A stretch of 64,000 nucleotides of DNA from an uncultured Lachnospiraceae bacterium. Lineage in GTDB: Bacteria > Bacillota > Clostridia > Lachnospirales > Lachnospiraceae. Numbering within the stretch: the stretch's first letter is position 1; each line of letters opens with the position of its first letter. The stretch is from positions 5,761 through 69,760 of the forward strand of contig CAMJGH010000002.1 in NCBI GenBank assembly GCA_946405185.1, in the 5' to 3' direction. A program made the translations under genes and the position numbers. Positions 20,644 through 37,004 of this stretch are shown one piece after another. The notes under the pieces were generated by a model. It saw only the letters and a list, made by a program, of their open reading frames with translations. It made no database searches and had not been told where the DNA came from.

Positions 20644-20697
20644 AGACGCTGTGCGGCTTTTGCGGCCGTCTCTTGAAACGGAAGGAGAGTGGTCCCT

Positions 20698-21372
20698 ATG
20701 GATCCCATGGAAAAACGCAGACCGGTCATCGCCATCCTCCGCAATGTGCTCGGCACGGTGGTGTGCACCGCCCTGATCATCTCGCTCTGTGTCACCCTTA
20801 CCCTGCTGTACCGTCCCCTGTATTTCCGCGATATGCAGCAGATGAAGCTGGCCGAAAGGAACGGTGTGACGGAAGAGGAGATCCTGGCCAATTACAGGAC
20901 GCTCATCACCTACAACACCCTCTTCGGGCCGGACGAGCTGGAATTTCCCACGCTCACACAGTCCGAGACCGGGCGCATCCATTTTGCCGAGGTGAAGAAG
21001 ATCTTTGTCGGCTTCCAGTGGTGCGCCATCGTCTGCCTGCTGCTGTTTTCCAGCCTTCTGGCGCGCTCCCGCGTGGCCAGGGACTTCCGGTGGCTGCGGG
21101 CCACGGCCATCGCCATCGGCGTCATACTGGCCGCCATTGCGGCCGTCTTTCTGATCGGCGGCTGGGACAACGTGTTCGTGTGGTTCCACAAGCTGGTCTT
21201 CAACAACGATTACTGGATCTTTGACTACACCACGGATCCCATCATCAACTTCCTGCCGGATACCTACTTCCTGCACTGCGCGCTGCAGATCCTCATCAAC
21301 GTTCTCATCGGTGCCGGCATCTGCGAGTGGCGCTACCGGGCCACCCGCAAGGAGTTTGCCGCGAAGAAATAA
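20698..21372 (+). CDS. TIGR01906/DUF1461-family integral membrane protein (family of lipoprotein intramolecular transacylase Lit, from memory)
   Basis: ATG 9 nt after 'AAGGAGAG'. Four TM segments and the family-like 'FHKLVFNNDYWIFDYTTDPIINFLPDTYF' block. Confidence 0.6.
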   Translation: MDPMEKRRPVIAILRNVLGTVVCTALIISLCVTLTLLYRPLYFRDMQQMKLAERNGVTEEEILANYRTLITYNTLFGPDELEFPTLTQSETGRIHFAEVKKIFVGFQWCAIVCLLLFSSLLARSRVARDFRWLRATAIAIGVILAAIAAVFLIGGWDNVFVWFHKLVFNNDYWIFDYTTDPIINFLPDTYFLHCALQILINVLIGAGICEWRYRATRKEFAAKK

Positions 21373-22927: not shown

Positions 22928-24181
22928 TCACCATTCATCCACGTTCAGTTTCTGTACCTGGGCTTTCTGCTGTTCCTTTTGCAGCTCCGCATAGAACCGC
23001 GCCGTGACCGCCACGCTCTTGTGGTTGAGCTGCTGGCTGGCCAGCTGCACGTTTCCGGTCTGTGACAGGATGCGTGTGGCGCAGGTGGCGCGCAGCTTGT
23101 GCGGCGAGAAGATGTCTTTGTCCGGATAGTCCGGCAGATACGTGCGGACCATTTCCTTGACCATCAGTTCCACCGCGCGCACCGTCATGCGGCCGCCGCG
23201 GGTGGTGATGAACACGGCTTCACAGTTCTTTTTCGGCCCCAGACCGGACCGCCCCTGCCGGCGCATGGCGGAAGCCAGCGCCTCCATATCGCGGTAGAAA
23301 CTCTCGGATTCCTCGGGGTAGGTGTCGCGCACCAGTCTGGCAAAGCCGGCCGTCATGGCGTTCTTCCGGCAGAATTCCAGTTCATCCTCCCCGTACTTTT
23401 CCGTGAGGGAAGAGGGGAGAGACGTACCGTCCAGATACATCTTCAGCGCCTCGGCTACCGCTTCTCCAAAGTACACTTCGTTCTCATCCCCGCCTTTGGT
23501 GACCACCGTAAAACACCCGCGATAGAAGTTGATATCCTGAAGATCCAGCCCCACCAGCTCCGAACACCGCAGCCCGGTGCCCAGAAACGTGCGCAGGATC
23601 GCGTAATTGCGCAACACCAGCCGGTCACGTTTTACCTGCACGGTCTCCGGAATGCTGATGACCACGGGTCTGTCTTCCCCTTCCAGCAGATACTTGTCGT
23701 TGGCCAGCACCCCCGTGAGCAGCCGGGAGGACAGATCCGCATCCAGCCGCACGATCCGGTGGCGGTTCAGCGCCGGATAGGAGAAGAACCGCATGGGGTT
23801 GTGCTCGGTGAAGCCGATGGCGTTCAGGTATTTGTAGAACACCGAGAGCGACGAAAAATACCGCTTGGACGACGCGTTGGTGATCATGCGCACGCGGTGC
23901 AGGTAGTCCCGGTATTCGTTCAGATCCTGGACGGAGAAGACGGTAAACATCTCCATGGGGAAGTCCTTCAGATCCGTTTCCGCCAGCGACGGCACCATTT
24001 CCTTCTCGTATTTCATGAACTCCACCACGTCCGACACGTAGTAGAGCTGCGTCAGCACCTCCTTGGTGCCGCCGGAGATGTGCTGGTAGAACCCCTGCAT
24101 GTAAGAGGGGGCGGTCTTCAGCACACGGCGGATCTTATCTTCAGCCTTGCGGTTCTGTTCATCGCGGTATTCAACAGACAT
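22928..24181 (-). CDS. Tyrosine site-specific recombinase (XerC/D / phage-integrase family)
   Basis: SAM-like N-domain and catalytic-domain residues: 'LRTFLGTGLRCSEL' (Arg), 'HKLRATCATRIL' (H-x-x-R) and 'LNHKSVAVTARFYAE' (His...Tyr). ATG at 24181 follows 'AAGGAGA'. The upstream Met at 24319 has no RBS. Confidence 0.85.
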   Translation of the reverse strand: MSVEYRDEQNRKAEDKIRRVLKTAPSYMQGFYQHISGGTKEVLTQLYYVSDVVEFMKYEKEMVPSLAETDLKDFPMEMFTVFSVQDLNEYRDYLHRVRMITNASSKRYFSSLSVFYKYLNAIGFTEHNPMRFFSYPALNRHRIVRLDADLSSRLLTGVLANDKYLLEGEDRPVVISIPETVQVKRDRLVLRNYAILRTFLGTGLRCSELVGLDLQDINFYRGCFTVVTKGGDENEVYFGEAVAEALKMYLDGTSLPSSLTEKYGEDELEFCRKNAMTAGFARLVRDTYPEESESFYRDMEALASAMRRQGRSGLGPKKNCEAVFITTRGGRMTVRAVELMVKEMVRTYLPDYPDKDIFSPHKLRATCATRILSQTGNVQLASQQLNHKSVAVTARFYAELQKEQQKAQVQKLNVDEW

Positions 24182-24312
24182 GACAGTCTCCTTAAGATTC
24201 AACCCACTGTGACATCGCTTACGGAAGAGGGCAGTTTGATGATAGCACTTCTTCGCATTATGTGCAATACTTCGAAATAATAAATTGATCTGAATCAGAT
24301 ATCCGTTCTTTC

Positions 24313-24341
24313 TTGACAATCTCCCGGATTTCCTTCATACT
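24313..24341 (+). promoter_or_regulatory. Putative sigma-A promoter of the collagen-like gene
   Basis: TTGACA (24313-24318), 17-nt spacer, CATACT (24336-24341). The ORF-track 'start' at 24313 is actually the TTG of this -35. Confidence 0.4.
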
Positions 24342-24399
24342 TTTTCAAGACAAAGATTTTCAGACATTTTTCAATCCTTTATACAGGAGTTATGAACCT

Positions 24400-26433
24400 A
24401 TGAATGACAACACCCCGCATAAGAACCGCACCCGGAAGGGCCTCCTGCTGGCTGCGCTGGCCATCGCCTGCCTGCTGCTGGCTTTCGGCATCGGCACGTT
24501 TGCCGGCGGCCGTGCCGCCAGGAAAGCCGTGCAGAACATCCCGGACACGACCATCAAAGAGGCCGGCGTGAGCGCGGACGGCGATCTGATCATCACACTG
24601 TCTACCGGGAAGACCATTAACGCCGGCCATGTGCTGGGTGCGCCCGGCCGTGACGGCGTTGATGGCAAAAACGGCCAGGACGGCGCTCCCGGCGCCAACG
24701 GTGCAGACGGAAAAGACGGGGCCGACGGCGCTCCCGGTGCTCCCGGAGCCGATGGCCGGAATGGCCTCAACGGTGCCAACGGAGCAGACGGCAAGGATGG
24801 CAGGGATGGCGCAGACGGCAGTGCAGGGCCTGCCGGACCGGCCGGAACCAACGGTACGGACGGGAAAGACGGTGTCGGTGTGTCTTCCGTGACCATCAGC
24901 GCCAGCCAGGAACTGATCATCACCTATACCGATGGTACCGCCCACAACGCCGGCTCTGTGAAGGCCGAAAAAGGCGATACGGGTGCCATAGGCGCGACAG
25001 GAGCCGCGGGAGCAGACGGGACCGGCATCTCCACGGTGGCTGTCAATGACGCCGGTGAACTGGTCCTGACGCTGACGGATGGCTCGGTCCTCAACGTAGG
25101 CCGGGTGGTCGGCCGTGACGGGCAGAATGGCGCCGACGGCAAAGACGGTGCCGATGGCCAGGACGGAAAAGACGGCAGAGATGGCGCGGATGGCCAGGAC
25201 GGAAAAGACGGTGAAAACGGCCAGGATGGCAAAGACGGCAAAGACGGACAGAACGGTGCCGACGGCATAGGCGTTTCGTCTGTCGCCATCTCGGATGATG
25301 GCAGTCTCACCATGACGCTCTCAAACGGGAACAATATAGAACTTGGAAACATCCGGGGAAAGGATGGTGCCCCCGGTGCCAATGGCGCTGACGGCAAGGA
25401 CGGTCAGGACGGCGCAGACGGAAGAGGCATTGAGTCTGCCTCCATCAACGAAGCCGGGGAGTTGGTCTTCACCTTCACGGACGGCTCGACGACGAACCTC
25501 GGCACGGTCGTGGGAAAGGACGGTAAAGACGGAGAGGACGGTGCTGACGGACAGCCCGGAAAGGACGGAAAGAACGGAAACAATGGAAGCAACGGCAAGG
25601 ATGGGGTCGGTATTGAATTGATCCAGAGGATCAATGATGAACTGATCGTAGTACTGACACCCGATTACCGCCCGGTAAACCTCGGCAATATCAAAGGTGA
25701 TAAAGGAGACACCGGAGACACCGGCCGCGGCATTACCGATGTCACTGTAAATGGTGACGGCAATCTGATCATCACCTATACCGACGGGACCACCCAGAAT
25801 GCCGGGCATATTGTCGATAAGAATACCCCCACAGACCCATATGCGATCGGCAGCGTCGTCACGATGGGCAAATACGAGCAGGATAACAACACCTCCAACG
25901 GACCCGAGCCCATTGAATGGATCGTGGTCCAGAATACAGGAAACAAAGCGTTGCTGATGTCCAAATATGTGCTGGAATATATGGCTATGTCGGATTCCCG
26001 GTACATGAGGTCCGCCGTTCGGGAGTTTCTGGAAGGTAATTTTTACTGGAACGCCTTTACCTACGATGAAACGAAAAAGATCCTGGACTCGCATATTCCC
26101 GATCTGAGTGCAGTCACACAAGGCAGAATAAACAATCATGTGTATATCTTCAGTTATGACGAAATAACAGCTCTTTCGCTGAACAACATCGATCTTACCC
26201 CGATTTTCACCCCCTATGTCCTGGCGAGAAACGGCAACAGGGAGGATGACGGCGTCTGGCTGCGGGATGAATATGACGGTTCCGGCAAATCAGGGGGCGG
26301 TAATTGCATCTATCGGACTTATCAAGGGTTCCTGCACATACAAAGTCCGACTGCGTTTACAGTTAACTATGTAATGAAACCAGAGGAGTCCTGCGGCGTC
26401 CGCCCCTCCATGTGGATTTCCATCGAACCGTAA
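24400..26433 (+). CDS. Membrane-anchored mosaic collagen-like (G-X-Y) repeat surface protein with DUF6273-like C-terminal domain
   Basis: ATG 10 nt after 'CAGGAG'. N-terminal TM '[21 protein letters not shown]'. Six G-X-Y runs (by my count about 27, 6, 18, 8, 11 and 4 triplets) alternate with seven ~27-aa modules, e.g. '[27 protein letters not shown]'. C-terminal '[42 protein letters not shown]' resembles DUF6273 (from memory). Confidence 0.8.
24637..25731 (+). repeat. In-frame collagen-triplet / beta-module repeat array (coding)
   Basis: Recurrent 'GGCAAAGACGGn / GACGGCGCn' 9-mers encode GKD/GAD/GQD triplets, interleaved with diverged ~81-nt modules. Confidence 0.85.
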
Positions 26434-26462
26434 CCGCTGAACCATACGATACGGACTCTTTC

Positions 26463-26492
26463 AAGCCGCCCGGCTTTCCAGGCGGCTTTTTT
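26463..26492 (+). terminator. Rho-independent terminator after the collagen-like gene
   Basis: 'AAGCCGCC' cggctttcca 'GGCGGCTT' followed by 'TTTT'. Confidence 0.75.
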
Positions 26493-26612
26493 CATGCGCC
26501 AAAAAAAGCCTTTCTGCCGTCCGTGGCACCACCTCCCCGAACCATCTCCGGTTTACAATACGGCAGATTCCGTCACACCAACTGTCAACTCAAAAAAAAT
26601 ATAATGGATCCA

Positions 26613-26640
26613 TATAACCATTTTCGTTCACGGGGCGTCT
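26613..26640 (+). promoter_or_regulatory. Candidate ECF-type promoter, copy A (TATAACC-N17-GTCT)
   Basis: 'TATAACCattttcgttcacggggcGTCT'. The GTCT ends about 60 nt upstream of the 26700 ATG. One of four copies with identical 17-nt spacing. Confidence 0.55.
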
Positions 26641-26699
26641 CTTATACAGAGGGGCAGTTCTGAACCCCGTCAAAACAATCCATGCAAGGGAGAAAGACA

Positions 26700-28106
26700 A
26701 TGAAGAAGATCAACTGGTTCGTGCTCTTGGTCATGACGGCGCTGCTGGCGCTTGCCGGCTGTGGAGGCGGCAAGACGATCAACCTGAATGACTACGTCAA
26801 GGTGACGTTCACCGGCAGCAACGGCTACGGAAAGCCCGAGCTGTCCCTCGATGAAGCAGGCCTTCAGAATGCCATCGACAAGGCGGCCGGCAAGTCCGAC
26901 GAAGAGAAGCTTGGTGCCGTGTGGGCGGCTTCGGGCGCCATGCAGGGAGAGTGGTCCGCTTCCGAAGGCCTCTCCAACGGGGATACGGTGACGTACCACT
27001 TCACCGCCAGCCAGGAGGAGCTTGCCAAACTCAGCAAGGTGCGTTTCCGCTTCAAGGACATCACCGTGAAGGTGACCGGCCTTCCGGAGCGCGAGGTGTA
27101 CGATCCTTTTTCGGAGATTGAGGTGACCTTCGAAGGCTTTTCCGGGAAAGGGGAGGTGAAGATCCAGACGAAGGAACAGACGGTGAAGGGCCTTACGTTC
27201 AAGGCTTCCCAGCCGGAAGGCCTTTCCAATGGCGACACCGTGACCATCACCTGTGAAGCGCCGAACGGCGATCTGGACGCCTACCTGGCCGAAAGAGGGA
27301 TGGCTGCTGAAAAGAGCAGCTGTGACGTGACCGTCTCCGGGCTTACGGAGATGACATCCTTCGATCCGTTCGAGTATATCACGGTGTCCTTTACGGGCAT
27401 CTCGCCGAACGGCTCCATCCAGGTGGAGCAGGCCGGGATGCCGGTCGGCACGCTGCAGTTCATCTGCGAAGAAAGCGGCCACATCATGACCGGCCAGACC
27501 GTCACGCTGAAGATCGACAGCACCGGATATGGCGACATCGTCGATTTCTGCGCGAAGTACGGCTACACGCCTTCACGCCTTTCCTGTGAGTACACGGCCG
27601 ACAGTCTGAACCGGTATGCGACGTCTTTGGATGACGTGTCGGAAGAGGTTCTGGTGCGCGTGGACCGGGCTGCTGAAGATTTCATGCAGGCGTATGCCAA
27701 CAAAGGCATGTCGGGCTTCCCGAACAGCGATTACTACCGCGGTATGACACGCGTGGGCAGCGCCATCATCAGCCGGAAAGATCTGAAGCCGATGCCCACC
27801 AGGCCGACCACCCGCCTGTATGTGCTTTACGAGGTGTCGATGGAGTATGAGGGTACCGCCATGTCCTACTACTATGTCTTTACCTATGACAACGTCCTGA
27901 CCGACGCGCAGGGGCAGATGCAGCTGGATGCGGAATCGTACCGGTATACCGATAACGGATACTTCAAGATGACGCAGGTTGTGTTCGGCAAGGGGCCCAT
28001 TAAGGGCAACTCCGGCTATGGATTCAAATCCGTGCAGGATTTCCTGGACGCAGAGGTGCTTTCAAAGACGGACGAGTATCAGTACGATACCGACCTTCTG
28101 CCGTAA
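26700..28106 (+). CDS. Lipoprotein with three tandem ~80-aa internal repeats plus C-terminal globular domain; function unknown
   Basis: Signal peptide plus lipobox 'LLALAGCGGG'. Repeats are marked by 'V(T/S)FxG..G.G' and 'GLSNGDTVT' ('MTGQTVT' in the third). ATG follows 'GGGAGAAAG'. Confidence 0.75.
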   Translation: MKKINWFVLLVMTALLALAGCGGGKTINLNDYVKVTFTGSNGYGKPELSLDEAGLQNAIDKAAGKSDEEKLGAVWAASGAMQGEWSASEGLSNGDTVTYHFTASQEELAKLSKVRFRFKDITVKVTGLPEREVYDPFSEIEVTFEGFSGKGEVKIQTKEQTVKGLTFKASQPEGLSNGDTVTITCEAPNGDLDAYLAERGMAAEKSSCDVTVSGLTEMTSFDPFEYITVSFTGISPNGSIQVEQAGMPVGTLQFICEESGHIMTGQTVTLKIDSTGYGDIVDFCAKYGYTPSRLSCEYTADSLNRYATSLDDVSEEVLVRVDRAAEDFMQAYANKGMSGFPNSDYYRGMTRVGSAIISRKDLKPMPTRPTTRLYVLYEVSMEYEGTAMSYYYVFTYDNVLTDAQGQMQLDAESYRYTDNGYFKMTQVVFGKGPIKGNSGYGFKSVQDFLDAEVLSKTDEYQYDTDLLP

Positions 28107-28123
28107 GAAGTTATTTATCTATA

Positions 28124-28152
28124 TTCAATATTTGCCCATCCTGTGCTATGAT
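28124..28152 (+). promoter_or_regulatory. Possible sigma-A promoter ahead of the sigma-fusion gene
   Basis: TTCAAT, 17-nt spacer ending in TGC, then TATGAT. Weak -35. Confidence 0.3.
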
Positions 28153-28208
28153 AAAGGCGGGGCGGTTACAAGCCCTCCTTTCCGACAGAGACCAAAGGAC
28201 GAACGACC

Positions 28209-29744
28209 ATGGACGAAAAGATGCTGCAGCAGGCTGTCACCCGCTTTCAGGCGGGCGATGAGCAAGGCTTCAATATGCTTTACTCCGCGTATTACAACCG
28301 CGTGAAGAGCGGCCTTTACTATATGCTCAATGACGAGCATCTGGCCGAAGACTTCACGCAGGATGCCTTCCTGAAGGTGTACCAATACATCAATCAGCTG
28401 AAAGAACCCGGCAGATTCCCTTACTGGGTAAACAGGATCGCCGCCAACTGCGCGAACGATTATCTGAAGAAAGGCATGGCGACAGAAAAGACGTTCACGT
28501 CGCTGACGCCTGAGGGGGAAGAAGAGTCTGCCTTCCCATCTGACCACTATGTCCGGAATCCGGATGACTATCAGCCGGAGCAGGCCTACAGCCGGCAGGA
28601 GACGCAGCGCCTCATCCGGGAGATCCTGGATGACCTCCCGGATGGCCAGCGCATCTCCGTAACCCTGTACTATTACAACCAGATGAAGGTGAAAGAGATC
28701 GCGGAGATCACCGGCGTCAAGGAGAACGCTGTCAAGCAGTCGCTCTACCAGGCCCGCAAGAAGATCACCGCCAAAGTGGAAGAGTTGGAAAAGAAGGGGA
28801 CGAAGCTGTATTCCCTGGCACCGTTTTCCTTTTTCCTGTGGCTTTTTCACGCCGAGGCCGAAGCCTCCGCACTGGTGGCGGTTTCGGCTGCCGGTGCTTC
28901 CGCGGTGGCAGCTGCAGCCGCTGCTGCGGGAGGCGCCGGTGCTGCGGCCACCGGCAGCGCTGCCATCGGTTCAGCCGGCGGCCTGGGCGCCTGGCTGGCG
29001 GGGCTTCCCGGACTGGCCAAGGCCGGGTTAGGCGTGCTGGTGATGGCTGCCGTCATTGGCGGCGGCATCGGCATTGGCTCTCTGGCCGGGAAAGGAGATC
29101 GACCCCCTTCCCCTGAGACTGTCACCATGATCACCTCGGAAGCCGCCACCGAGTCGTCCACAGCTGAAACCTCCGAAAGCAGCACCGAAGAGACCACACC
29201 GGCCCATGTGCACAACTGGGTGGAAGTGACGGAAACCATCCATCACGACGCGGAGTATGAGGTCATCCCCCACGAAGCAGAAATCAGTACGGAGACGGAG
29301 GTCATCCACCACGACGCGGTGATCCGCACCATCCACCACGAGGCGGAGTATACAGAAGAAACGACGTTCGTCCCAAATGGAGAGACGTACAATATGTACG
29401 CCTGCCCTGCCTGCGGCGCCACGGGGTTCATATATGAAGGCCCCGGCTCTGACATGACGAATCTGCAGAAATATGGCGAGCTCCAACACAATGACGGGTG
29501 CACGGGAAGCGGCGCGCTAGTCCCCGTCACAGGTTACGGGGGAGATTATGAAACCATCCAGGTGCTCCTCCGGGAAGCCTATGACGAAACCGTGCTGGAA
29601 GCGGAGGCCTGGGATGAGACCGTCACCCACACGGTGGTGGAAAAGGAAGCCTGGGATGAGACCGTGCTGGTATCGGACGCGTGGGATGAAACCATAGTCA
29701 CCGGCTGCATCTGCGAGGAGTGCGGCGAGACCAAACCCGACTGA
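28209..29744 (+). CDS. ECF (sigma-70 group 4) sigma factor fused to a TM segment and an extracytoplasmic His/Trp/Cys short-repeat domain
   Basis: Region 2 is 'DAFLKVYQYINQLKEPGRFPYWVNRIAANCANDYLKK'. Region 4 is 'LPDGQRISVTLYYYNQMKVKEIAEITGVKENAVKQSLYQARKKI'. This is followed by an Ala/Gly-rich hydrophobic stretch with TM 'GLGVLVMAAVIGGGIGIGSL', an S/T/E linker and then HHDAEY-type and AWDET-type repeats with two CxxCG motifs. Confidence 0.8.
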   Translation: MDEKMLQQAVTRFQAGDEQGFNMLYSAYYNRVKSGLYYMLNDEHLAEDFTQDAFLKVYQYINQLKEPGRFPYWVNRIAANCANDYLKKGMATEKTFTSLTPEGEEESAFPSDHYVRNPDDYQPEQAYSRQETQRLIREILDDLPDGQRISVTLYYYNQMKVKEIAEITGVKENAVKQSLYQARKKITAKVEELEKKGTKLYSLAPFSFFLWLFHAEAEASALVAVSAAGASAVAAAAAAAGGAGAAATGSAAIGSAGGLGAWLAGLPGLAKAGLGVLVMAAVIGGGIGIGSLAGKGDRPPSPETVTMITSEAATESSTAETSESSTEETTPAHVHNWVEVTETIHHDAEYEVIPHEAEISTETEVIHHDAVIRTIHHEAEYTEETTFVPNGETYNMYACPACGATGFIYEGPGSDMTNLQKYGELQHNDGCTGSGALVPVTGYGGDYETIQVLLREAYDETVLEAEAWDETVTHTVVEKEAWDETVLVSDAWDETIVTGCICEECGETKPD

Positions 29745-29760
29745 AACTCATCACAAACCA

Positions 29761-29788
29761 TATAACCAAAACCCTTTTCAGGCGGTCT
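29761..29788 (+). promoter_or_regulatory. Candidate ECF-type promoter, copy B (TATAACC-N17-GTCT)
   Basis: 'TATAACCaaaacccttttcaggcgGTCT', about 140 nt upstream of the XRE gene start. Confidence 0.45.
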
Positions 29789-29929
29789 TTCCTAACAGGA
29801 GGGGCCGCCTGAACGCATATCAGCACCTGATGGACTGTTTACGATACGGCAACTTTCATAAGCCCAACAGTCACCCTCTTATGAGTACAATTATATAGTT
29901 ATGCCAAAGCCATAAGGAGGTGACAGATT

Positions 29930-30235
29930 TTGGAGCACTTGGCTGAAAAACTGAAGCTGGCGCGTCAAAACGCGCATCTGACGCAGGCCCAGGTGGCTTC
30001 CATGGTCGGACTGAACAAAGCGGCTATCTCTACCTACGAGACCGGCACCAGAAGGCCTTCGTTTGAAGTCTTATGCCGGCTTGCGTCCATATACAAAGTG
30101 AGCGTCGATTACCTGTTTGGACTGTCTGAAAGCAGCTCCATCCAAACGGAAGGCCTGACCGCCGAAGAGACGGAGCTGATCCGTTCACTCATCCGGATCA
30201 TGGAAAAGAAGCACCCGGAGACAGGCGAAAAATAA
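29930..30235 (+). CDS. XRE-family helix-turn-helix transcriptional regulator
   Basis: TTG start 9 nt after 'AAGGAGG'. 'LKLARQNAHLTQAQVASMVGLNKAAISTYETGTRRPSFEVLCRLASIYKVSVDYLFG' is a canonical Cro/C1 HTH. Confidence 0.85.
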   Translation: MEHLAEKLKLARQNAHLTQAQVASMVGLNKAAISTYETGTRRPSFEVLCRLASIYKVSVDYLFGLSESSSIQTEGLTAEETELIRSLIRIMEKKHPETGEK

Positions 30236-30248
30236 TGTCCAGAAACCG

Positions 30249-30276
30249 TATAACCTTTTCCGTTCTCAGGCGGTCT
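30249..30276 (+). promoter_or_regulatory. Candidate ECF-type promoter, copy C (TATAACC-N17-GTCT)
   Basis: 'TATAACCttttccgttctcaggcgGTCT'. The GTCT ends 30 nt before the 30307 ATG. Confidence 0.45.
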
Positions 30277-30306
30277 TTATCTATGAGATCCAAAAGGAGG
30301 ACCATC

Positions 30307-31698
30307 ATGAAAAAACACATCGCCATTCTGACCGTCACCTGTATCATCCTGATCCTTTCCGGCTGCCGGAAAGCCACGCAGGCGGACACGCTGCCGGAAA
30401 CCACCGCTCAGACCGCTGCCGTGGAGACCACAGAAGAGAACACCCCGGCGTCCACCGAAGAAGAGCTTCAAACGGCAGACGAGGCTTCCCGTGAGCCTTC
30501 CACCAGACGTGATCACGCTTACAGACCGACCGGGAAAGCCCTCGCGGTGCATGCCCGGCCCGCCGGAAAGGCCGGCATGACGTCTGAGGCATCCGCCGAG
30601 GCTGACGCCTCCGAAGAAGCCCTCGGGCTTCCGGCTGCGGCGGACGCCGCGGAAAACGTCAATCCCTCTGCCGCTCAGCCGACCGCTCCCACACCGGCAG
30701 AGAACGCCTCTCAGGAAGCACGCGCTGCCGAACCCGCACCGGCGCCCACCGAGACTCCCGCTGCTCCCGCACAGACACCGGCAGCGCAGGAGAGTGCCGC
30801 CCCCGCTCCTGCAGCACCCGCTCCCGCAGAAACCGCTGCTCCCACCGCTCCGGCGCCTGCCTTTACAGAAGGCTTCAACAACGCCAAGGCGTCCGAATTT
30901 GTCCAGCAGCTCAATGCGTTCCGTCAGGCTAACGGCCTTCCTGAAGTGCGTTGGGATGATACGTGCGCACAGGTTTCCGCGGAACTGAGCGCAAAGCGCA
31001 GCACCGGCGTGGCGACGGACGTGACGGAAGAGCACCTGAAGCGGCTGAACTGCAATACGATGCATTACGTCAGCATGTACGGTCCGGCCTCCGAAACCGC
31101 TGCAAAGCATTTCACAGGATTGAAAAACTATCCCGGCGAACCCGAGAAGCTGCTGGATCCGTCCCTCACCCGCATCGGTGTCGCTTTCTACGATCATATG
31201 AGCGCCCAGGGAGAATGGTGCGACGGATATCTGATCCTGGCGCCGGATGCGTTAAGCGCACCCATCTATATACCCGAGACCGAACCGGCACCTGCCTTCG
31301 ATCCGTATTTCGATGAAGCCGCGGCCATGCAGTGCTTTGAACTCACCAACGAGCTGCGCAGAAGCCTGGGACTCCCGGAACTGGTCTGGGACAGTGCCTG
31401 CCTTCAGGTATCCAATGTCAGAGCGCAGCAGCTGCCGGCAAACTGCACCCACGACCTCTTCTGGAGCGAGTTTGTCAAGGTGATGGGAGATCAGACGCCT
31501 TGTGCGGAAAACATCATGCACAGCCGCAGCACCTGTGACGGAGCCGTTGCTTTTGAGGGCTGGAAAAACTCCCCCAGTCACTACGCCGCCATGGTCAATC
31601 CGGCATACACCCGCGTGGCCATCACCATCTACCAGGTGATGTATGAAGGCGTCCCCTCCACCTTCGGCGTGATGATCCTGGCCGGACCCACACCGTGA
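30307..31698 (+). CDS. Lipoprotein with long Ala/Pro/Glu/Thr linker and two CAP/SCP (PR-1, YkwD-like) domains
   Basis: ATG 6 nt after 'AAGGAGG'. Lipobox 'ILILSGC'. The second domain has the CAP hallmarks 'AENIMH' and 'EGWKNSPSHYAAMVNPAYTRVAI'. The first domain is degenerate ('FVQQLNAFRQANGLPEVRWDD'). Confidence 0.75.
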   Translation: MKKHIAILTVTCIILILSGCRKATQADTLPETTAQTAAVETTEENTPASTEEELQTADEASREPSTRRDHAYRPTGKALAVHARPAGKAGMTSEASAEADASEEALGLPAAADAAENVNPSAAQPTAPTPAENASQEARAAEPAPAPTETPAAPAQTPAAQESAAPAPAAPAPAETAAPTAPAPAFTEGFNNAKASEFVQQLNAFRQANGLPEVRWDDTCAQVSAELSAKRSTGVATDVTEEHLKRLNCNTMHYVSMYGPASETAAKHFTGLKNYPGEPEKLLDPSLTRIGVAFYDHMSAQGEWCDGYLILAPDALSAPIYIPETEPAPAFDPYFDEAAAMQCFELTNELRRSLGLPELVWDSACLQVSNVRAQQLPANCTHDLFWSEFVKVMGDQTPCAENIMHSRSTCDGAVAFEGWKNSPSHYAAMVNPAYTRVAITIYQVMYEGVPSTFGVMILAGPTP

Positions 31699-31736
31699 TC
31701 CGCATCCCGTCGAATACAGAGTAAAGGAGAGTCATC

Positions 31737-32240
31737 ATGTTCGTAGCCTACATTCTGGTCTTTATCAGCTTAGGTTTTATCTGGGCATTCTGGAAGATGT
31801 CCTGCAGTTTTCTGTTCAACCTGATCCTGTTGTTTCTAACCTGGCTCTGGGACCACATGAGGATCACCTGCATCGTCCTCGCCATCACCATGGTGCTCGG
31901 TGTGGTCTTCACCGTCTTTTCCATCGGCTGGCGTGATCAGTACCACGAGCTCTTCTATGAGGGCAGCGCCATCGTCCGGTTCTTGGAACTGACGTCCGAG
32001 CCTCACGTGTTGGACTGGTATTCCTCCGGCTTTGAAAGCCTCTTCGGAAAACTGTTTGGCGCAGACTCCGGCACAGACGTGTTTGTCCAGGTGATCGGCA
32101 TCTATCTGGCTGCTTACCTGATACCGGTGATCCTCATGCTCATGATCGTCCTGCTCATGCCCATGTGTTTCATCAAGGTGTTGGCCGCCGCCATCGTACT
32201 GGATCTGATCCTCAAACTCTTTCAGCGCAGAAGAAAATAA
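31737..32240 (+). CDS. Polytopic membrane protein, unknown function
   Basis: ATG after 'AAAGGAGAG'. At least 4 hydrophobic helices. Probably co-transcribed with the CAP lipoprotein gene (38-nt gap, no terminator). Confidence 0.6.
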   Translation: MFVAYILVFISLGFIWAFWKMSCSFLFNLILLFLTWLWDHMRITCIVLAITMVLGVVFTVFSIGWRDQYHELFYEGSAIVRFLELTSEPHVLDWYSSGFESLFGKLFGADSGTDVFVQVIGIYLAAYLIPVILMLMIVLLMPMCFIKVLAAAIVLDLILKLFQRRRK

Positions 32241-32252
32241 GAACCCCAGCAG

Positions 32253-32284
32253 GCGGCCGCTTTATCGCAAAGCGGCCGCTTTTC
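32253..32284 (+). terminator. Rho-independent terminator
   Basis: 'GCGGCCGCTTT' atcgc 'AAAGCGGCCGC' followed by 'TTTT'. Confidence 0.85.
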
Positions 32285-32304
32285 GACAAAAACGGATACA
32301 GACA

Positions 32305-32332
32305 TATAACCATTTTCCTTCTTGAGCCGTCT
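32305..32332 (+). promoter_or_regulatory. Candidate ECF-type promoter, copy D (TATAACC-N17-GTCT)
   Basis: 'TATAACCattttccttcttgagccGTCT'. The GTCT ends about 55 nt before the 32387 ATG. The flanks and leader are homologous to copy A. Confidence 0.55.
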
Positions 32333-32386
32333 TATATACAGAAGGGCCGCACAGGCACTTCAAAACCATCCAGGGAGGAACACAAC

Positions 32387-33514
32387 ATGAAGACCATCAT
32401 CACTTTTCTCTGCAATCTCGGCAACGATCTGGCAGACGCCGCGCAGCGTGCGGCAGAGGCGATGCCCGGCGGCTGGTGGGGCCTCATCGGACTGACCATC
32501 GTCATGCTGGCCGCCAGCACGGCACTTTCGTACCGGTACAACCGGAAGACCACGGAAGTTTCCGGGAAAGAAGCCTGGACCAAAGCAATGACAGATCCCA
32601 TCGCGTGGATCGCAAAGCCGATCCGTAAACTGCTGAAGAAAAGCAACAGCTGGCTTGTACTCATTGTCCTGACACTGCTGATCGCTTCAGCCGGCTGTTC
32701 GGACGGCAATACCGTCACTCCGAATGACGATGTTCACAAGGCCTCCTCCGAGGAGCAAACATCCGCCCCGTCGAAAACCTCTGCGGCTGCTTCCTTCAGA
32801 AAGCAGAAAAAAGCCGCCGCTGCCAGGACATCGGAAGCGAAGGAATCTGAAGGAGCGAAAACCATCCTGGCTCAGAACTACACCGAAGCAGAAGCGGAAC
32901 AGTCGGCTGCTGAAACGGAAATCGCCATGCTGAGTTCTGTTGAAAGCGCAGAAGATACAGCCGAGAACGTCGAAAGTGTCACCACGGTTGCACCGACTGC
33001 TCATGAACACACGTGGGAGGAGATCGGCCATAACGAAAACGTCATGATCCGGGATGCCTATGATGAGCCGATCGTGGCAAAAGCAGCCTGGGATGAGCAG
33101 ATACTCGTAAAGGATGCCTGGGATGAGCAGTTACTGGTCAGCGATGCCTGGGATGAGCAAGTCATGGTGGAAGAGGAATGGGATGAGCCCATATATGAGT
33201 GTCACAGTTTCTGCAATCAATGTGGGATCGATCTGACTGTCAATTGTCCGGGAGAATACGTGAATCATTTGATGGATGTTCACGATGGTGCCGCCGGCTG
33301 GTATTCCAGAAACACTGAAGTTGATTCCATCCATCACGATGCGCAGTATGAGACCGTCCATCATGACGCGGAATACCAGACCGTTCATCATGAAGCTGAG
33401 TACCAGACGGTACATCATGATGCGGAATACGGAACCGTGCATCACGACGCTCAGTATGAACAGCGCTGGATCGTGGACGGATACCGATGCTCCGGGTGCG
33501 GTGAAGTCAAATAA
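32387..33514 (+). CDS. Membrane/lipoprotein carrying a module-swapped paralogue of the sigma-fusion ectodomain (AWDE x5, CxxC, HHDAEY x5, CxxCG)
   Basis: ATG 8 nt after 'GGGAGG'. TM 'WWGLIGLTIVMLAASTAL', then a second hydrophobic segment ending 'LLIASAGCSDG' (lipobox-like). An internal Met at 32588 would give a classical lipoprotein signal peptide. The C-terminal repeat domain is aa 205-375. Confidence 0.75.
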   Translation: MKTIITFLCNLGNDLADAAQRAAEAMPGGWWGLIGLTIVMLAASTALSYRYNRKTTEVSGKEAWTKAMTDPIAWIAKPIRKLLKKSNSWLVLIVLTLLIASAGCSDGNTVTPNDDVHKASSEEQTSAPSKTSAAASFRKQKKAAAARTSEAKESEGAKTILAQNYTEAEAEQSAAETEIAMLSSVESAEDTAENVESVTTVAPTAHEHTWEEIGHNENVMIRDAYDEPIVAKAAWDEQILVKDAWDEQLLVSDAWDEQVMVEEEWDEPIYECHSFCNQCGIDLTVNCPGEYVNHLMDVHDGAAGWYSRNTEVDSIHHDAQYETVHHDAEYQTVHHEAEYQTVHHDAEYGTVHHDAQYEQRWIVDGYRCSGCGEVK

Positions 33515-33524
33515 CAGGTTGTGA

Positions 33525-33728
33525 ATGATCATGCTGACAACTGACAAATTAAAGGAACTGATATGCCTTGGCATCGGATATGGGATGGATCCTCCGGATA
33601 AGGTGGAGGAAAGCTATGCCCGGCTGATGAAACGGGTGAGAGCGGCAGAAGCCTCATCCGGTAAGCGGGAGTTTGTTTCATCAGACATCGAAAAAGCAGA
33701 AGGACATCTGGCAATGCCGACGGGCTGA
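33525..33728 (+). CDS. Small hypothetical protein (67 aa), doubtful
   Basis: ORF 10 nt after the preceding stop. No convincing RBS, no recognisable domain, lower GC than the surroundings. Confidence 0.25.
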   Translation: MIMLTTDKLKELICLGIGYGMDPPDKVEESYARLMKRVRAAEASSGKREFVSSDIEKAEGHLAMPTG

Positions 33729-33797
33729 GTCTGGTTGATGGAAATTCTGTTTTCGCATAACTGCAATACTACGAAAAAGAGCATTTATCCCGAAAAT

Positions 33798-33840
33798 ACC
33801 CCGGAATTGCCTGTATCAGGCCTTTCCGGGGTTCTTTTTC
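33798..33840. terminator. Bidirectional terminator-like hairpin at the lgt 3' end
   Basis: 'ACCCCGGA...TCCGGGGT' stem with 'TCTTTTT' on the plus strand and 'TATTTTC' on the minus strand. Confidence 0.5.
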
Positions 33841-34768
33841 AGGCTTCCGGCTTTTCAGCGGATTCCTCGGTATGGTCGGCTTCCTCGGACGTTTCTTCGC
33901 TGGCAGCCGTCTTGTCTGCAGGTTCTGCTTCAGCTTCATCAGCTGTCTTGTCTGCAGCATCCGTGTCTTTCGTTTCCGCAGCGGCTTTTTCGGCTTCGTA
34001 TTCCGCATCGGCTTCGGCAATGGCGCCGCGTACTGTGCACATCCGGTACAGCACCACGCCCGCAATCAGCGTGAAAATGGCGATGAACTGCGATGTGGAA
34101 AACAGCCAGACGCTCCCGCGCGGATCTCCGCGGAAATACTCCATGGCAAACCGTCCGATGCTGTACAGGATCAGATACAGGCTGCCCACCTGGCCATCGT
34201 AGCGCTTTTTGCGGGCAAAGCCCAGGAGCACGCCGAAATGCAGGAAATTCAGTGCCGAACTCATGAGCTGCGTCGGGATCAGCTTCACATTGTTGGGGGC
34301 AAACTGGGAATTCTTGAACACGATGTGGCAGGCGGACGCGGTCTCTTTGCCGTAGCAGCACCCGGCCAGGAAGCAGCCGATGCGGCCGAACGCCTGTGCG
34401 AGCGCAATGGACGGCATGACCAGATCAAACATCTTAAAGAAATTCAGATGTTTGCGCCGGGTATACAGCCAGCCTGTGAAAATTCCCAGGACGATACCGC
34501 CATAGACCACAAAGCCGTCCGCCACGTTCAGGAACAGCTTCGGGTTGGCCAGATACGTCGGCAGTTCCACGATCCAGTACATGACCTTGGCGCCGACCAG
34601 ACCGCCGATACCGGCCCAAATGCCCAGGTAAAAGACGGTATCTTCATCGGTACCGTACTTTTTGGCGCGCTTCATGGCCACCAGAAACGCTGCCACAATG
34701 CCGACAGCCATCATCAGGCCGTATCCGTAGATGGTGATCGGCCCGATATGCAGCAATTCATTATGCAT
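33839..34768 (-). CDS. lgt: Prolipoprotein diacylglyceryl transferase with ~60-aa acidic low-complexity C-terminal tail
   Basis: 'IGPITIYGYGLMMAVGIVAAF' and 'GRIGCFLAGCCYG' Lgt-like blocks. Tail 'AEADAEYEAEKAAAETKDTDAADKTADEAEAEPADK...'. Confidence 0.88.
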   Translation of the reverse strand: MHNELLHIGPITIYGYGLMMAVGIVAAFLVAMKRAKKYGTDEDTVFYLGIWAGIGGLVGAKVMYWIVELPTYLANPKLFLNVADGFVVYGGIVLGIFTGWLYTRRKHLNFFKMFDLVMPSIALAQAFGRIGCFLAGCCYGKETASACHIVFKNSQFAPNNVKLIPTQLMSSALNFLHFGVLLGFARKKRYDGQVGSLYLILYSIGRFAMEYFRGDPRGSVWLFSTSQFIAIFTLIAGVVLYRMCTVRGAIAEADAEYEAEKAAAETKDTDAADKTADEAEAEPADKTAASEETSEEADHTEESAEKPEA

Positions 34769-35541: not shown

Positions 35542-36474
35542 TCATTTCCGGGCGCGAAGCGCCGTCAGAAGTTCTTCCATTTCATCCGGAAGCGGCGAGG
35601 AAAACACGACCTCTTCGCCGGTTGTGGGGTGAACAAACCCCAGCAGATACGCGTGAAGGCACTGCCCGTGCAGGTTTTTCAGGCTCAAGCCGGCCAGTTT
35701 CCCTTCCGCCGGGCCGTAGACCGTATCGCCCACCAGCGGATGGCCGATCTTCGTCATATGCACGCGGATCTGGTGCGTTCTTCCCGTTTCCAGGCGGCAT
35801 TCGATGTAGGTGCAGTCCCCAAAGCGCTCCAGCACTTTCCAGTGCGTCACGGCTTCCCGTCCGCCCGGCACGACCGCCATCTTCTTGCGGTCCGCAGGGC
35901 TGCGGCCGATGGGCGCGTTGACCGTCCCTTCGTCCTCGCGCAGATTCCCGTAGACGATGGCCCGGTAGCGGCGCTGCAGCGAATGAACCGCCAGCTGCGC
36001 GGCGATGGCTGTATGCGCGGCATCGTTCTTGCAGACCACCAGCAGGCCCGTGGTGTCGCGGTCGATCCGGTGCACGATGCCCGGACGCTCCACGCCGTTG
36101 ATGCCGGACAGATCCGTACAGTGATACAGCAAGGCGTTGACCAGCGTCCCGGTCATGTGGCCGGGTGCGGGATGCACCACCATGCCTTTGGGCTTGTTGA
36201 CCACGATGACATCGGCATCTTCGTAGACGATATCCAGCGGGATGTCCTCGGCGGCGATGGCCACCGGCGTCACTTCGGGCACGCGGATGCGGATGCCGTC
36301 GCCGGCCGCCGGCTCATAGCTGGGCTTGACCGGACGGTCGTTCACCGTCACGTCTCCGGCCGCGATGCGCTTCTGCCAGAACGTCCGTGAGCGCTCGGAA
36401 AAGCGCGCCGCCAGATACCGGTCGAGGCGCGCTTCTTCTTCTCCTTCTTCCACACGGTAGAAAATGTCCGTCAC
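35542..36474 (-). CDS. rluD: RluA-family 23S rRNA pseudouridine synthase (RluD-like)
   Basis: S4 domain 'RLDRYLA' and catalytic 'HRIDRDTTGLLVVCKN'. Conserved lspA-rluD pairing. Confidence 0.9.
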   Translation of the reverse strand: MTDIFYRVEEGEEEARLDRYLAARFSERSRTFWQKRIAAGDVTVNDRPVKPSYEPAAGDGIRIRVPEVTPVAIAAEDIPLDIVYEDADVIVVNKPKGMVVHPAPGHMTGTLVNALLYHCTDLSGINGVERPGIVHRIDRDTTGLLVVCKNDAAHTAIAAQLAVHSLQRRYRAIVYGNLREDEGTVNAPIGRSPADRKKMAVVPGGREAVTHWKVLERFGDCTYIECRLETGRTHQIRVHMTKIGHPLVGDTVYGPAEGKLAGLSLKNLHGQCLHAYLLGFVHPTTGEEVVFSSPLPDEMEELLTALRARK

Positions 36475-37004
36475 TTCTTTTCGTCCCCGTCTGCTTTCGT
36501 ACCCGGCTTCAGGAAGGCCAGATCATCGTCCTTCCTGTAGACAAAAACCATCAGGATGATCAGCAGGATCACGGAGCAGACCACACAGATGTCCGCCACG
36601 TTGAACACCGGGAAGTTGATCAGCGAGAAATACAGGAAATCCACCACATAGCCGTTCATCATGCGGTCCAGGAGGTTTCCCACCGCACCGGCCATCAGGC
36701 CGAACAGGCAGAGGGTGAACAGCGTGTACCGCTTCTCCTCCGGCACCTTGCGGAGAACGCCCACGATCGCGGCCAGCATGATCAGCGTGACCGCCAGGAA
36801 AAAGAAGTTGGCGTTCTGCAGGATGCCGAAAGCCGCGCCCCGGTTCTCCACGTATGACAGTTCAAAGACGCCCGGGATCAGGGGGATGGATGCCGCCTTC
36901 AGCGTGGTGGCCGCCCAGTACTTGGTCAGCTGGTCGATCAGGACCAGCACGGCCATCATCACAAAGCCGGCGGTCTTCATGCGCGGTGTTTTCGTTTGAT
37001 CCAT
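36471..37004 (-). CDS. lspA: Lipoprotein signal peptidase II
   Basis: 'NRGAAFGIL' and 'FPVFNVADI' catalytic Asp blocks. Four TMs. Confidence 0.92.
   Translation of the reverse strand: MDQTKTPRMKTAGFVMMAVLVLIDQLTKYWAATTLKAASIPLIPGVFELSYVENRGAAFGILQNANFFFLAVTLIMLAAIVGVLRKVPEEKRYTLFTLCLFGLMAGAVGNLLDRMMNGYVVDFLYFSLINFPVFNVADICVVCSVILLIILMVFVYRKDDDLAFLKPGTKADGDEKK

Follow-up and report, generated by a model that had tools for sequence, protein, structure and literature searches.

Gene organization and protein architecture

The DNA examined here is a 64,000-nt stretch (the window) of contig CAMJGH010000002.1 from an uncultured Lachnospiraceae bacterium (assembly GCA_946405185.1), in which two genes encode proteins that end in related repeat modules. 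The first, here gene A or the sigma fusion (28209–29744, + strand, 511 amino acids), encodes a sigma factor of the extracytoplasmic function (ECF) type with sigma regions 2 and 4 (Sigma70_r2 and Sigma70_r4_2), a transmembrane (TM) segment, a linker, and a module of predicted hairpin fold at nucleotides (nt) 29202–29741. The second, here gene B (32387–33514, + strand), starts at ATG 32387, stops at 33512–33514, and encodes 375 amino acids (aa). The two genes lie 2.6 kb apart and carry the only copies of the module within the window. The open reading frame (ORF) of gene B, its coordinates, and every motif quoted for it in a preliminary description of this DNA were found in the sequence.

Gene B is isolated as its own transcription unit by an intrinsic terminator that ends the upstream membrane-protein gene (32252–32285, + strand; stem GGCGGCCGCTTT / AAAGCGGCCGC, then TTTT, as read from the sequence). 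Its start was assigned to ATG 32387 on the basis of the Shine-Dalgarno sequence, the GC content at third codon positions (GC3), the position of the terminator and of the promoter described below, and a gene call in a second strain. The Shine-Dalgarno sequence GGGAGGA (32373–32379, + strand) stands 7 nt ahead of this ATG. GC3 is 0.76 over 32387–32587, as in real genes of this DNA, and the 146 nt upstream are compositionally flat. A 375-aa product with the same start was also called in strain L080, so that gene calls from two independent assemblies agree. The internal Met68 (ATG 32588) has no Shine-Dalgarno sequence ahead of it. The suggestion that translation from this internal codon would give a textbook lipoprotein is thus weakly founded, the ribosome-binding site, GC3 periodicity, and the position of the promoter all favouring ATG 32387.

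The N-terminal part of the protein (all features of gene B are on the + strand) begins with a tail, residues 1–29, followed by hydrophobic segment 1 (32474–32533; aa 30–49, WWGLIGLTIVMLAASTALSY), which is a TM helix as predicted by Kyte-Doolittle hydropathy. A basic loop follows (32534–32650; aa 50–88) with 10 Lys and Arg residues and a net charge of +7, and it is this loop that holds the internal Met. Under the positive-inside rule the loop is predicted to be cytoplasmic and the C-terminal module to lie outside. Hydrophobic segment 2 (32651–32698; aa 89–103, 15 residues) ends in a lipobox-like ASAG-C104 and may be either a second TM helix or an internal signal-peptidase II site. A hydrophobic segment ending in IASAGC (aa 89–104) had been noted before and does exist; it is lipobox-like rather than textbook. 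When compared with the pattern [LVI][ASTVI][GAS]C, positions −3 to +1 read S-A-G-C, the Ser at −3 falling outside [LVI], and the Cys is residue 104 from ATG 32387 and residue 37 from Met68, where the usual window is ≤35. Lipidation of gene B on these sequence features is possible and is not the favoured reading. The segment is followed by an acidic low-complexity linker (32699–32998; aa 105–204, net charge −9), for which homologues outside its own species were not found. A chi-conotoxin match on the hydrophobic segment was set aside as noise. Gene B was also considered as an anti-sigma factor, of the class I or zinc-binding type, and rejected, given that its sole cytoplasmic part would be the 39-aa basic loop, where an N-terminal cytoplasmic anti-sigma domain would take up about 80–90 aa, and that no Pfam or NCBIfam match was obtained.

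The module of gene B comprises aa 205–375 (171 aa), opening with AHEHTW and closing with CSGCGEVK. The stalk base (32999–33052) consists of the opener and a first strand, which in the AlphaFold2 model begins at ectodomain residue 6, and H206, H208, and W210 are invariant in the family. The outgoing arm (33053–33202; aa 223–272; AlphaFold2 pLDDT 94–97) is made of five WDE-type decamers (DAYDEPIVAK, AAWDEQILVK, DAWDEQLLVS, DAWDEQVMVE, and EEWDEPIYEC). The tip (33203–33328; aa 273–314) has C276-x2-C279-G (CNQCG) and then a helix with H294 and H299, together a putative C2H2-like zinc site, and a linker of about 35 residues separates CNQCG from the second array. This returning arm (33329–33463; aa 315–359; pLDDT 91–97) is made of five HH-type nonamers of the form xHH(D/E)A(E/Q)Yxx. 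A closing strand and terminal clasp, RWIVDGYRCSGCGEVK (33464–33511), complete the module; C368 and C371 are invariant and would form a putative His2Cys2 site with H206 and H208. At the DNA level, Tandem Repeats Finder reported a 30-nt array at 33062–33159 and a 27-nt array at 33330–33450.

Relation of gene B to the sigma fusion

The module of the sigma fusion (aa 332–511) opens with AHVHNW and closes with CEECGETK; between them stand four HH-type units, CPACG, a linker, and four WDE-type units. One of its four HH-type units is degenerate (IPHEAEIS). The count is 4+4 units and not 5+5. By BLASTP, gene B and the sigma ectodomain gave two separate local alignments in swapped order, one between the WDE arrays (E 2e-13, 39% identity) and one between the HH arrays (E 9e-13, 45% identity). 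Similarity of this order is well beyond chance, and the earlier observation that the two C-termini share their building blocks in swapped order thus withstood proper pairwise alignment. The similarity of the arrays extends to DNA, with 64–85% identity over 27–58 nt (repeat families D3–D5). The arms of the two proteins are alike in length (62 and 67 residues), and the tips are unrelated in sequence.

The arrangement had been described as a circular swap of modules and, alternatively, as the product of domain shuffling within the locus. Neither description fits. The opener, the CxxCG of the tip, and the terminal CxxCG-x-K keep their positions, and the arm types alone are exchanged. Gene B's module is nearer to modules from other organisms (52–53% identity to P0003 and to P0002, the latter being a foreign sigma fusion too) than to that of the sigma fusion (39–45%). 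The sigma module in turn aligns with P0130 and P0131 over 99% of its length at 43–44% identity. As judged from these sequence comparisons, the scaffold is fixed and the swap concerns the arm types alone; it did not arise by rearrangement within the locus.

Among relatives of the sigma fusion, a juxtamembrane motif is conserved and the ectodomains are highly variable. Of 85 related sigma fusions that were examined, 2 carry the hairpin module, namely P0365 and the window's own, which figures under the cluster representative P0126. A metagenome scan with the sigma fusion yielded no more than a conspecific fragment and an unrelated ECF sigma factor. In the closest sigma-fusion relative, P0248 (578 aa, 36% identity), a large globular insert of about 170 aa stands between a single HH unit and a single WDE unit, so that its ectodomain amounts to a stalk of one rung topped by a large tip domain.

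Mirror rule of the repeat arrays

Across the family the scaffold is constant: HxHxW, array 1, a CxxCG tip with a conserved His and a further His or Cys, array 2, and CxxCG-x-K. Within it the two arrays obey a mirror rule, by which unit i of array 1 is opposite in type to unit n+1−i of array 2. Unit number (1–7 units) is equal on both arms in 182 of 209 homologues. In the equal-arm homologues, all 802 of 802 units are opposite in type when the arms are read in antiparallel register, as compared with 530 of 802 in parallel register. Gene B (wwwww/hhhhh) and the sigma fusion (hhhh/wwww) each have equal unit numbers and mirrored types.

The rule was also evaluated on 61 parsable representatives at 50% identity, 34 of which are exact mirrors. 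With partners shuffled, exact mirrors averaged 2.9 and never exceeded 10 in 5000 trials; with unit order shuffled within an arm, they averaged 16 and never exceeded 25. Arm lengths are correlated (Spearman 0.85). Arms of mixed type occur in 23 of the 34 exact mirrors, and mixed arrays that obey the rule include hhhw/hwww, hhww/hhww, hhhhww/hhwwww, and hwwww/hhhhw. The order of arrays in the non-redundant set is WDE-first in 36, HH-first in 19, and mixed in 6. Insertions are mirrored as well; in the sigma fusion a TETEV between HH units 2 and 3 faces a VTHT that lies between the corresponding units of the WDE arm, and the same is seen in P0145. Variant units also tend to face each other across the two arms, HH against WDE (odds ratio 9.4, Fisher p 5e-6), a covariation that may stem from relatedness and tip-proximal degeneration and gives weak support for pairing.

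A DNA palindrome as the source of the complementarity was considered and rejected. No inverted repeats join the two arrays in either module region, where the sole inverted repeat is a short local palindrome at 29418–29447 in the sigma tip, and the mirror rule must thus act on the protein.

Predicted fold and putative zinc sites

The mirror rule implies that array 1 pairs antiparallel with array 2, with one HH unit against one WDE unit in each rung, and because HH and WDE units are partners, either order of the arms would give one fold. AlphaFold2 models are consistent with this, and the module of both proteins is predicted to be one long two-stranded antiparallel beta-hairpin. For gene B the mean pLDDT was 90.5, with strands at ectodomain residues 6–72 and 101–164 and a tip helix at residues 85–92. 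For the sigma ectodomain the mean was 79.8 (arms >90, tip ~50), with strands at residues 6–67 and 107–171. Breaks in the strands as assigned by DSSP coincide with the "DA" dipeptide of every unit in both arms.

In the family alignment, two His and one Trp are invariant at the base, two Cys, one Gly, and one His at the tip, and two Cys and one Gly at the end. At the tip of gene B these are C276, C279, G280, and H294, and H299 aligns with a Cys in most homologues. A base zinc site (HxH plus the terminal CxxC) and a tip zinc site (CxxC plus H...H/C) are therefore probable, as inferred from the invariant His and Cys residues.

The hairpin obtained no significant match when searched with Foldseek against the PDB and BFVD, and a PDB sequence profile search likewise gave no significant match, just weak C2H2-finger matches to the tip (E ≥0.016). 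Pfam zf-C2H2 and zinc-ribbon matches to the tip (best E 0.0044–0.12) were all below the gathering cut-offs.

Distribution and variants of the module

No Pfam or NCBIfam model scored above threshold for the whole gene B protein or for 18 module sequences, and the motif strings of the module had no occurrence in the literature searched. Sequence searches, by comparison, revealed a large family. Gene B as query obtained >1600 matches at 90% clustering and the sigma ectodomain 430, and among 1.84 billion representatives at 50% identity there were 1535 clusters at E ≤1e-3 and 518 at E ≤1e-10. When one genome per species was considered, the module was found in Lachnospiraceae, Oscillospiraceae, Erysipelotrichaceae, Coriobacteriia, Bifidobacterium, and other actinobacteria.

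The module is C-terminal and the anchors ahead of it are diverse; among them are lipoprotein signal peptides, single TM segments, SLH domains, and further N-terminal domains, and in rare cases an ECF sigma factor takes this place. From these varied export anchors it follows that the module is extracytoplasmic. The description of both C-terminal regions as ectodomains is thus almost certainly right, homologues having lipoprotein or Sec signal peptides or SLH domains.

Several members depart from the arrangement seen in the window. P0367 (1126 aa) has >25 HH units after HEHTW, then a Cys tip, and about 25 WDE units with CSSCG; its returning arm is broken by a globular insert of about 450 aa, and its stalk could reach many tens of nanometres. 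In P0389 and P0414, which are of actinobacterial type, HH and WDE units alternate along each arm, the HxHxW and CxxC clasps are missing, the tip is Cys-poor, and a conserved ending WVEPxGHWE(W/Y)R is shared. Given these two proteins, zinc clasps are not universal in the family, and tip cysteines are absent altogether in some members (P0143, P0221). P0371 (736 aa) has SLH domains, several zinc-ribbon-like CxxCG...GHxW repeats, and then an 11-rung hairpin. This protein hints that the HxHxW/CxxCG clasp may be related to a separate Cys/His repeat motif that is common in Clostridia surface proteins.

Generality of the two-gene pairing

Co-occurrence of the two genes across genomes was seen only among near-identical strains. 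Of the 58 module loci, just 4 have a second module gene within 8 kb, and the module-bearing sigma fusions of loci L027 and L072 have no second copy nearby, so the idea of a conserved gene pair fails at the level of the family. Four loci with related sigma fusions (L076–L079) have no paralogue of their own ectodomain nearby. A jackhmmer search for sigma domains in 71 module loci found only L027, although the sensitivity of this search may be limited.

A commoner setting is found in 21 loci (L003, L004, L006–L011, L039, and others), in which the module gene lies 54–500 bp upstream of, and on the same strand as, the gene for a giant surface protein with T-Q ester-bond and SpaA domains (≥2,500 aa in the largest examples). 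The module proteins of this subfamily are about 440–550 aa and have an unannotated N-terminal domain. Genes for a MobA/MobL relaxase, topoisomerase III, and an integrase are often near these loci.

Shared ECF-type promoters

The motif ATAACC-N16-(C/G)GTCT occurs four times in the 64 kb, each time on the + strand and inside the locus; the chance expectation is 0.42, and none of 100 shuffles reached four. The first copy (26614–26640) is the ECF-type promoter of a lipoprotein gene (26682–28106) and the sigma-fusion operon. The gene B promoter (32306–32332) reads ATAACC, 16 nt, and CGTCT, followed by a conserved TATACAGAAGGGC. A third copy (29762–29788; GGTCT variant, repeat family D12) lies upstream of an XRE helix-turn-helix (HTH) gene at 29930, and a fourth (30250–30276) upstream of the Shine-Dalgarno sequence AAGGAGG and ATG 30307 of a CAP-domain lipoprotein. 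AAC (−35) and CGT (−10) cores are typical of ECF promoters. The gene B site has both cores, within a spacer range of about 16–17 nt, and shares them with the sigma operon.

The sites fall into two subtypes. Those at 26611 and 32303 are 82% identical (26611–26655 against the gene B promoter over 45 nt, repeat family D7), and those at 29752 and 30240 are 79% identical. All four are kept in strain L080, which is 98% identical. A search for the window's exact motif across 73 loci gave one isolated match, whereas a looser pattern revealed a related motif in L076 and L077. There the sigma fusions P0301 and P0318, with sigma domains 43–47% identical to the window's, have AAAACC-N16-CGTCT-xATATACAGxAGGGG ahead of their operon and again ahead of the next, downstream gene, which encodes a lipoprotein related to the one encoded at 26682 in the window (E 4e-16). 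Because the motif recurs at related sigma-fusion loci, the promoter type appears to travel with the sigma-fusion family.

On these promoter comparisons, gene B probably belongs to the regulon of the adjacent sigma fusion. This regulon would comprise the lipoprotein and sigma genes, the XRE regulator, the CAP lipoprotein, and gene B, with the membrane-protein gene downstream of CAP as a possible further member.

Genomic setting

A tyrosine recombinase (integrase) gene at 22928–24319 (− strand) abuts the locus. GC content is 0.53–0.58 across 24–34 kb (about 24300–33800) as compared with 0.59–0.65 in the flanks, which hold lit (20689–21372) and MatE on one side and lgt (33839–34768, − strand) and lspA (36471–37004, − strand) on the other. 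The locus is probably an integrated island. No convincing att-site direct repeats and no tRNA gene were found within the window. Composition and the closest matches point, tentatively, to a high-GC, Oscillospirales-like member of Clostridia. In strain L080 a 1.4-kb insertion (7842–9255 of that locus, corresponding to about 33709 of the window) separates gene B from lgt. Its product, of 459 aa, has HTH_3 and weakly matches HipA_C, and the island is thus variable at its right end.

Several observations on the remaining genes were made. The island, which has at least two clear lipoproteins, sits among the lipoprotein-maturation genes lit (lipoprotein intramolecular transacylase), lgt, and lspA. 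A gene at 24313–26433 encodes a 706-aa protein in which collagen-like GXY triplets are mixed with a repeated beta-rich segment, followed by a C-terminal DUF6273, and holds long DNA repeats with a 9-nt period (family D1). The CAP-domain ORF (30235–31698) is overextended at its 5′ end, and its likely start is ATG 30307 behind AAGGAGG; from there it encodes a 463-aa lipoprotein (ILILSGC) with two CAP/YkwD-like regions, in agreement with a 463-aa call in L080. In L076 and L077 the sigma fusions lie in small elements with an integrase, a Tn916-type Xis, a Mob_Pre relaxase, and an XRE gene, and a 46-aa ORF precedes the sigma gene.

Interpretation

The reading that we favour, and hold with moderate confidence, is that gene B encodes a sigma-induced, membrane-anchored, zinc-clasped beta-hairpin stalk and that the sigma ectodomain has the same fold with its arms exchanged. 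Under this reading the gene B protein would have a short outside tail, a first TM helix, a basic cytoplasmic loop, a second TM helix, an acidic disordered linker, and the 171-aa outer module. Its stalk would have arms of about 60 residues and five rungs, each outgoing WDE decamer being paired with a returning HH nonamer. The base would be closed by a zinc site formed by the N-terminal HxH and the C-terminal CxxC, and the cap would be a zinc-knuckle-plus-helix tip (CxxC...H...H/C). The sigma ectodomain would be built likewise, with four rungs and a different tip. Either repeat type could stand on either arm, or the types could be mixed, provided that the mirror rule holds. The membrane-tethered sigma factor would induce gene B along with the lipoprotein, the XRE regulator, and the CAP-domain lipoprotein, and the gene B stalk would display its small tip domain outside the cell. 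The kinship of the two proteins, the mirror rule, the sharing of promoters, and the start of gene B are shown by the sequences; the hairpin fold, zinc binding, topology, and sigma dependence are predictions. Any ligand of the stalk, and any interaction or competition of the gene B stalk with the sigma stalk as feedback, are speculative.

Several points weigh against this reading. Repeats were parsed by regular expressions, and there is redundancy in the homologue sets, one architecture being common to 125 of the 209 homologues. Of the 61 non-redundant proteins, 27 are not exact mirrors, most deviating by one or two units. The fold is predicted, with a pTM of just 0.40 for gene B and 0.38 for the sigma fusion, as expected for rods and yet not reassuring, and the zinc sites and exact register come from conservation alone. 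The promoter assignment uses motif statistics and synteny, and another ECF sigma factor could read these promoters. The sequence immediately upstream of the sigma fusion has a sigma-70-like extended −10 element and not the ECF motif.

An alternative that we consider unlikely, while taking it seriously, is that the gene B ectodomain partners the sigma ectodomain as a decoy, co-sensor, or ligand shuttle and modulates sigma release, for example by negative feedback in which both compete for one ligand or protease. One module common to both proteins, arms alike in length, and two genes 2.6 kb apart that are the sole copies in 64 kb are all in keeping with a partnership. ECF regulons commonly include their own negative regulator, and the presence of the sigma operon's promoter type at gene B makes a feedback architecture plausible. 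However, the tips, where specificity probably resides, show no sequence relationship, and the pairing is not conserved, the sigma fusions of L027, L072, L076, and L077 having no ectodomain paralogue and only 4 of 58 loci having two copies. The mirror rule moreover predicts that HH and WDE units already have their partners within each hairpin.

Similarly doubtful is the proposal that gene B is surface stalk cargo of the island, serving surface architecture or adhesion with no mechanistic tie to sigma sensing. It draws on the tyrosine recombinase, the GC dip, the housekeeping flanks (lit, MatE, lgt, lspA), and the strain-variable right end, and also on the 21 loci in which a module gene precedes a giant surface protein with relaxase, topoisomerase III, or integrase genes near and on the occurrence of related sigma fusions in elements with integrase, Xis, and Mob_Pre. 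Against it, the shared promoter restricted to the locus argues for co-regulation with the sigma operon, with which a surface role would be compatible.

It is rather improbable that gene B is a lipoprotein, whether by a start at Met68 or by lipidation and signal-peptidase II cleavage at Cys104. The short hydrophobic stretch at aa 89–103 is followed by A-S-A-G-C and preceded by a Lys/Arg-rich region, many family members are clear lipoproteins, and the residue classes fit the permissive PROSITE lipobox pattern. Against this stand the strong Shine-Dalgarno sequence at 32387 with none at 32588, the GC3 of 0.76 that shows 32387–32587 to be coding, the Ser at −3, the position of the Cys (104, or 37 from Met68), and the independent gene calls that use 32387.

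We give about as little weight to the possibility that the ribbon, rich in HH and Asp/Glu, is mainly a high-capacity metal-binding (zinc, nickel, or iron) or pH-sensing surface, with the sigma fusion as sensor and gene B as buffer. Each ectodomain has at least 10 His and many Asp and Glu residues, invariant within units, and the His-rich polyhistidine triad lipoproteins of the streptococcal surface bind zinc. Adjacent His residues on a beta-strand would face opposite sides, however, and rungs would lie about 3 nm apart, which makes multi-His sites unlikely; structural pairing explains the HH/WDE mirror rule more simply; and no metal-homeostasis genes were found in the locus.

Slightly less probable still is an elaboration of the stalk reading, in which the module defines a length-programmable class of zinc-clasped beta-ribbon stalks of 1 to >20 rungs, up to tens of nanometres long. 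Such stalks would be borne in Gram-positive bacteria by lipoproteins, S-layer-anchored proteins, proteins that partner adhesins on conjugative elements, and tethered sigma factors. In this locus the sigma factor would sense by its stalk and induce an arm-swapped copy, and the opposite polarity of the arms would allow the two stalks to zip edge-to-edge in one defined orientation, with feedback on sigma release. Recent duplication and shuffling inside the locus is very improbable, for although the two copies lie within 5 kb and their arrays are alike at the DNA level, each has nearer relatives elsewhere (gene B 52–53% to P0002 and P0003, sigma 43–44% to P0130 and P0131, as against a partial 39–45% between them), both and mixed array orders are common family-wide, and the tips are unrelated.

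Comparison with known systems

The closest known functional analogy to the predicted stalk is that of the streptococcal antigen I/II proteins (SpaP, SspB), LPXTG wall-anchored adhesins in which alanine-rich A repeats pair with proline-rich P repeats. In both cases two repeat arrays in matched number flank a tip and pair, or would pair, into a long narrow stalk that holds the tip away from the cell surface. In antigen I/II an alpha-helix pairs with a polyproline-II helix, whereas the module described here is predicted to pair strand with strand, has no sequence kinship with those proteins, and is distinguished by repeats of 9–10 aa, putative zinc sites at base and tip, and interchangeable arm types.

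C-terminal extensions of ECF sigma factors have been described as a regulatory mode (Casas-Pastor et al. 2021, PMC7826278). As in the proteins treated in the part of that article drawn on here, gene A carries a long C-terminal extension behind sigma regions 2 and 4 and is not accompanied by a separate anti-sigma gene; an extension made of one TM segment and a hairpin ectodomain is not described in that part of the article.

The tip resembles C2H2 fingers and zinc ribbons in having C-x2-C...H-x4-H (or C) and a short helix, and its weak profile matches were to eukaryotic C2H2 fingers (E 0.016–0.3) and TFIIS-type ribbons, all under the curated thresholds. The knuckle here, unlike those of C2H2 fingers, is predicted to cap an extracellular beta-hairpin. 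The best shapes found by Foldseek, none of them significant, were the very long two-stranded hairpins of lysenin and aerolysin stems and of phi29 and Andhra phage tail knobs (E ≥0.1, TM-score ≤0.24). Those become amphipathic barrel staves on oligomerisation, whereas the hairpin considered here is charged, repeat-built, and putatively zinc-clasped. With bacterial lipoproteins (substrates of Lgt and LspA) gene B shares a short hydrophobic segment and A-S-A-G-C, and it differs from them in that the motif is internal (Cys104), has Ser at −3, and has a TM helix and basic loop ahead of it.

Significance

The finding is structurally more interesting than the preliminary description had seen, but less specific to this locus than it had proposed. 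The locus itself would be a compact testable regulon, with a single sigma fusion, one promoter type at four sites, and a second copy of the sensor fold under its induction. If the prediction is true, the module would be a widespread one that has gone without annotation, its 1535 clusters spanning Clostridia, Erysipelotrichia, Coriobacteriia, Bifidobacterium, and other actinobacteria, many of them from gut and rumen. Its code would be simple, with one-to-one pairing across a hairpin, in which repeat number sets the length of the stalk and the order of the arms is free, and it could serve as a model for co-evolving complementary repeats and as a designable rigid spacer. It would also offer a lead on what the membrane-tethered ECF sigma factors of gut Firmicutes sense.

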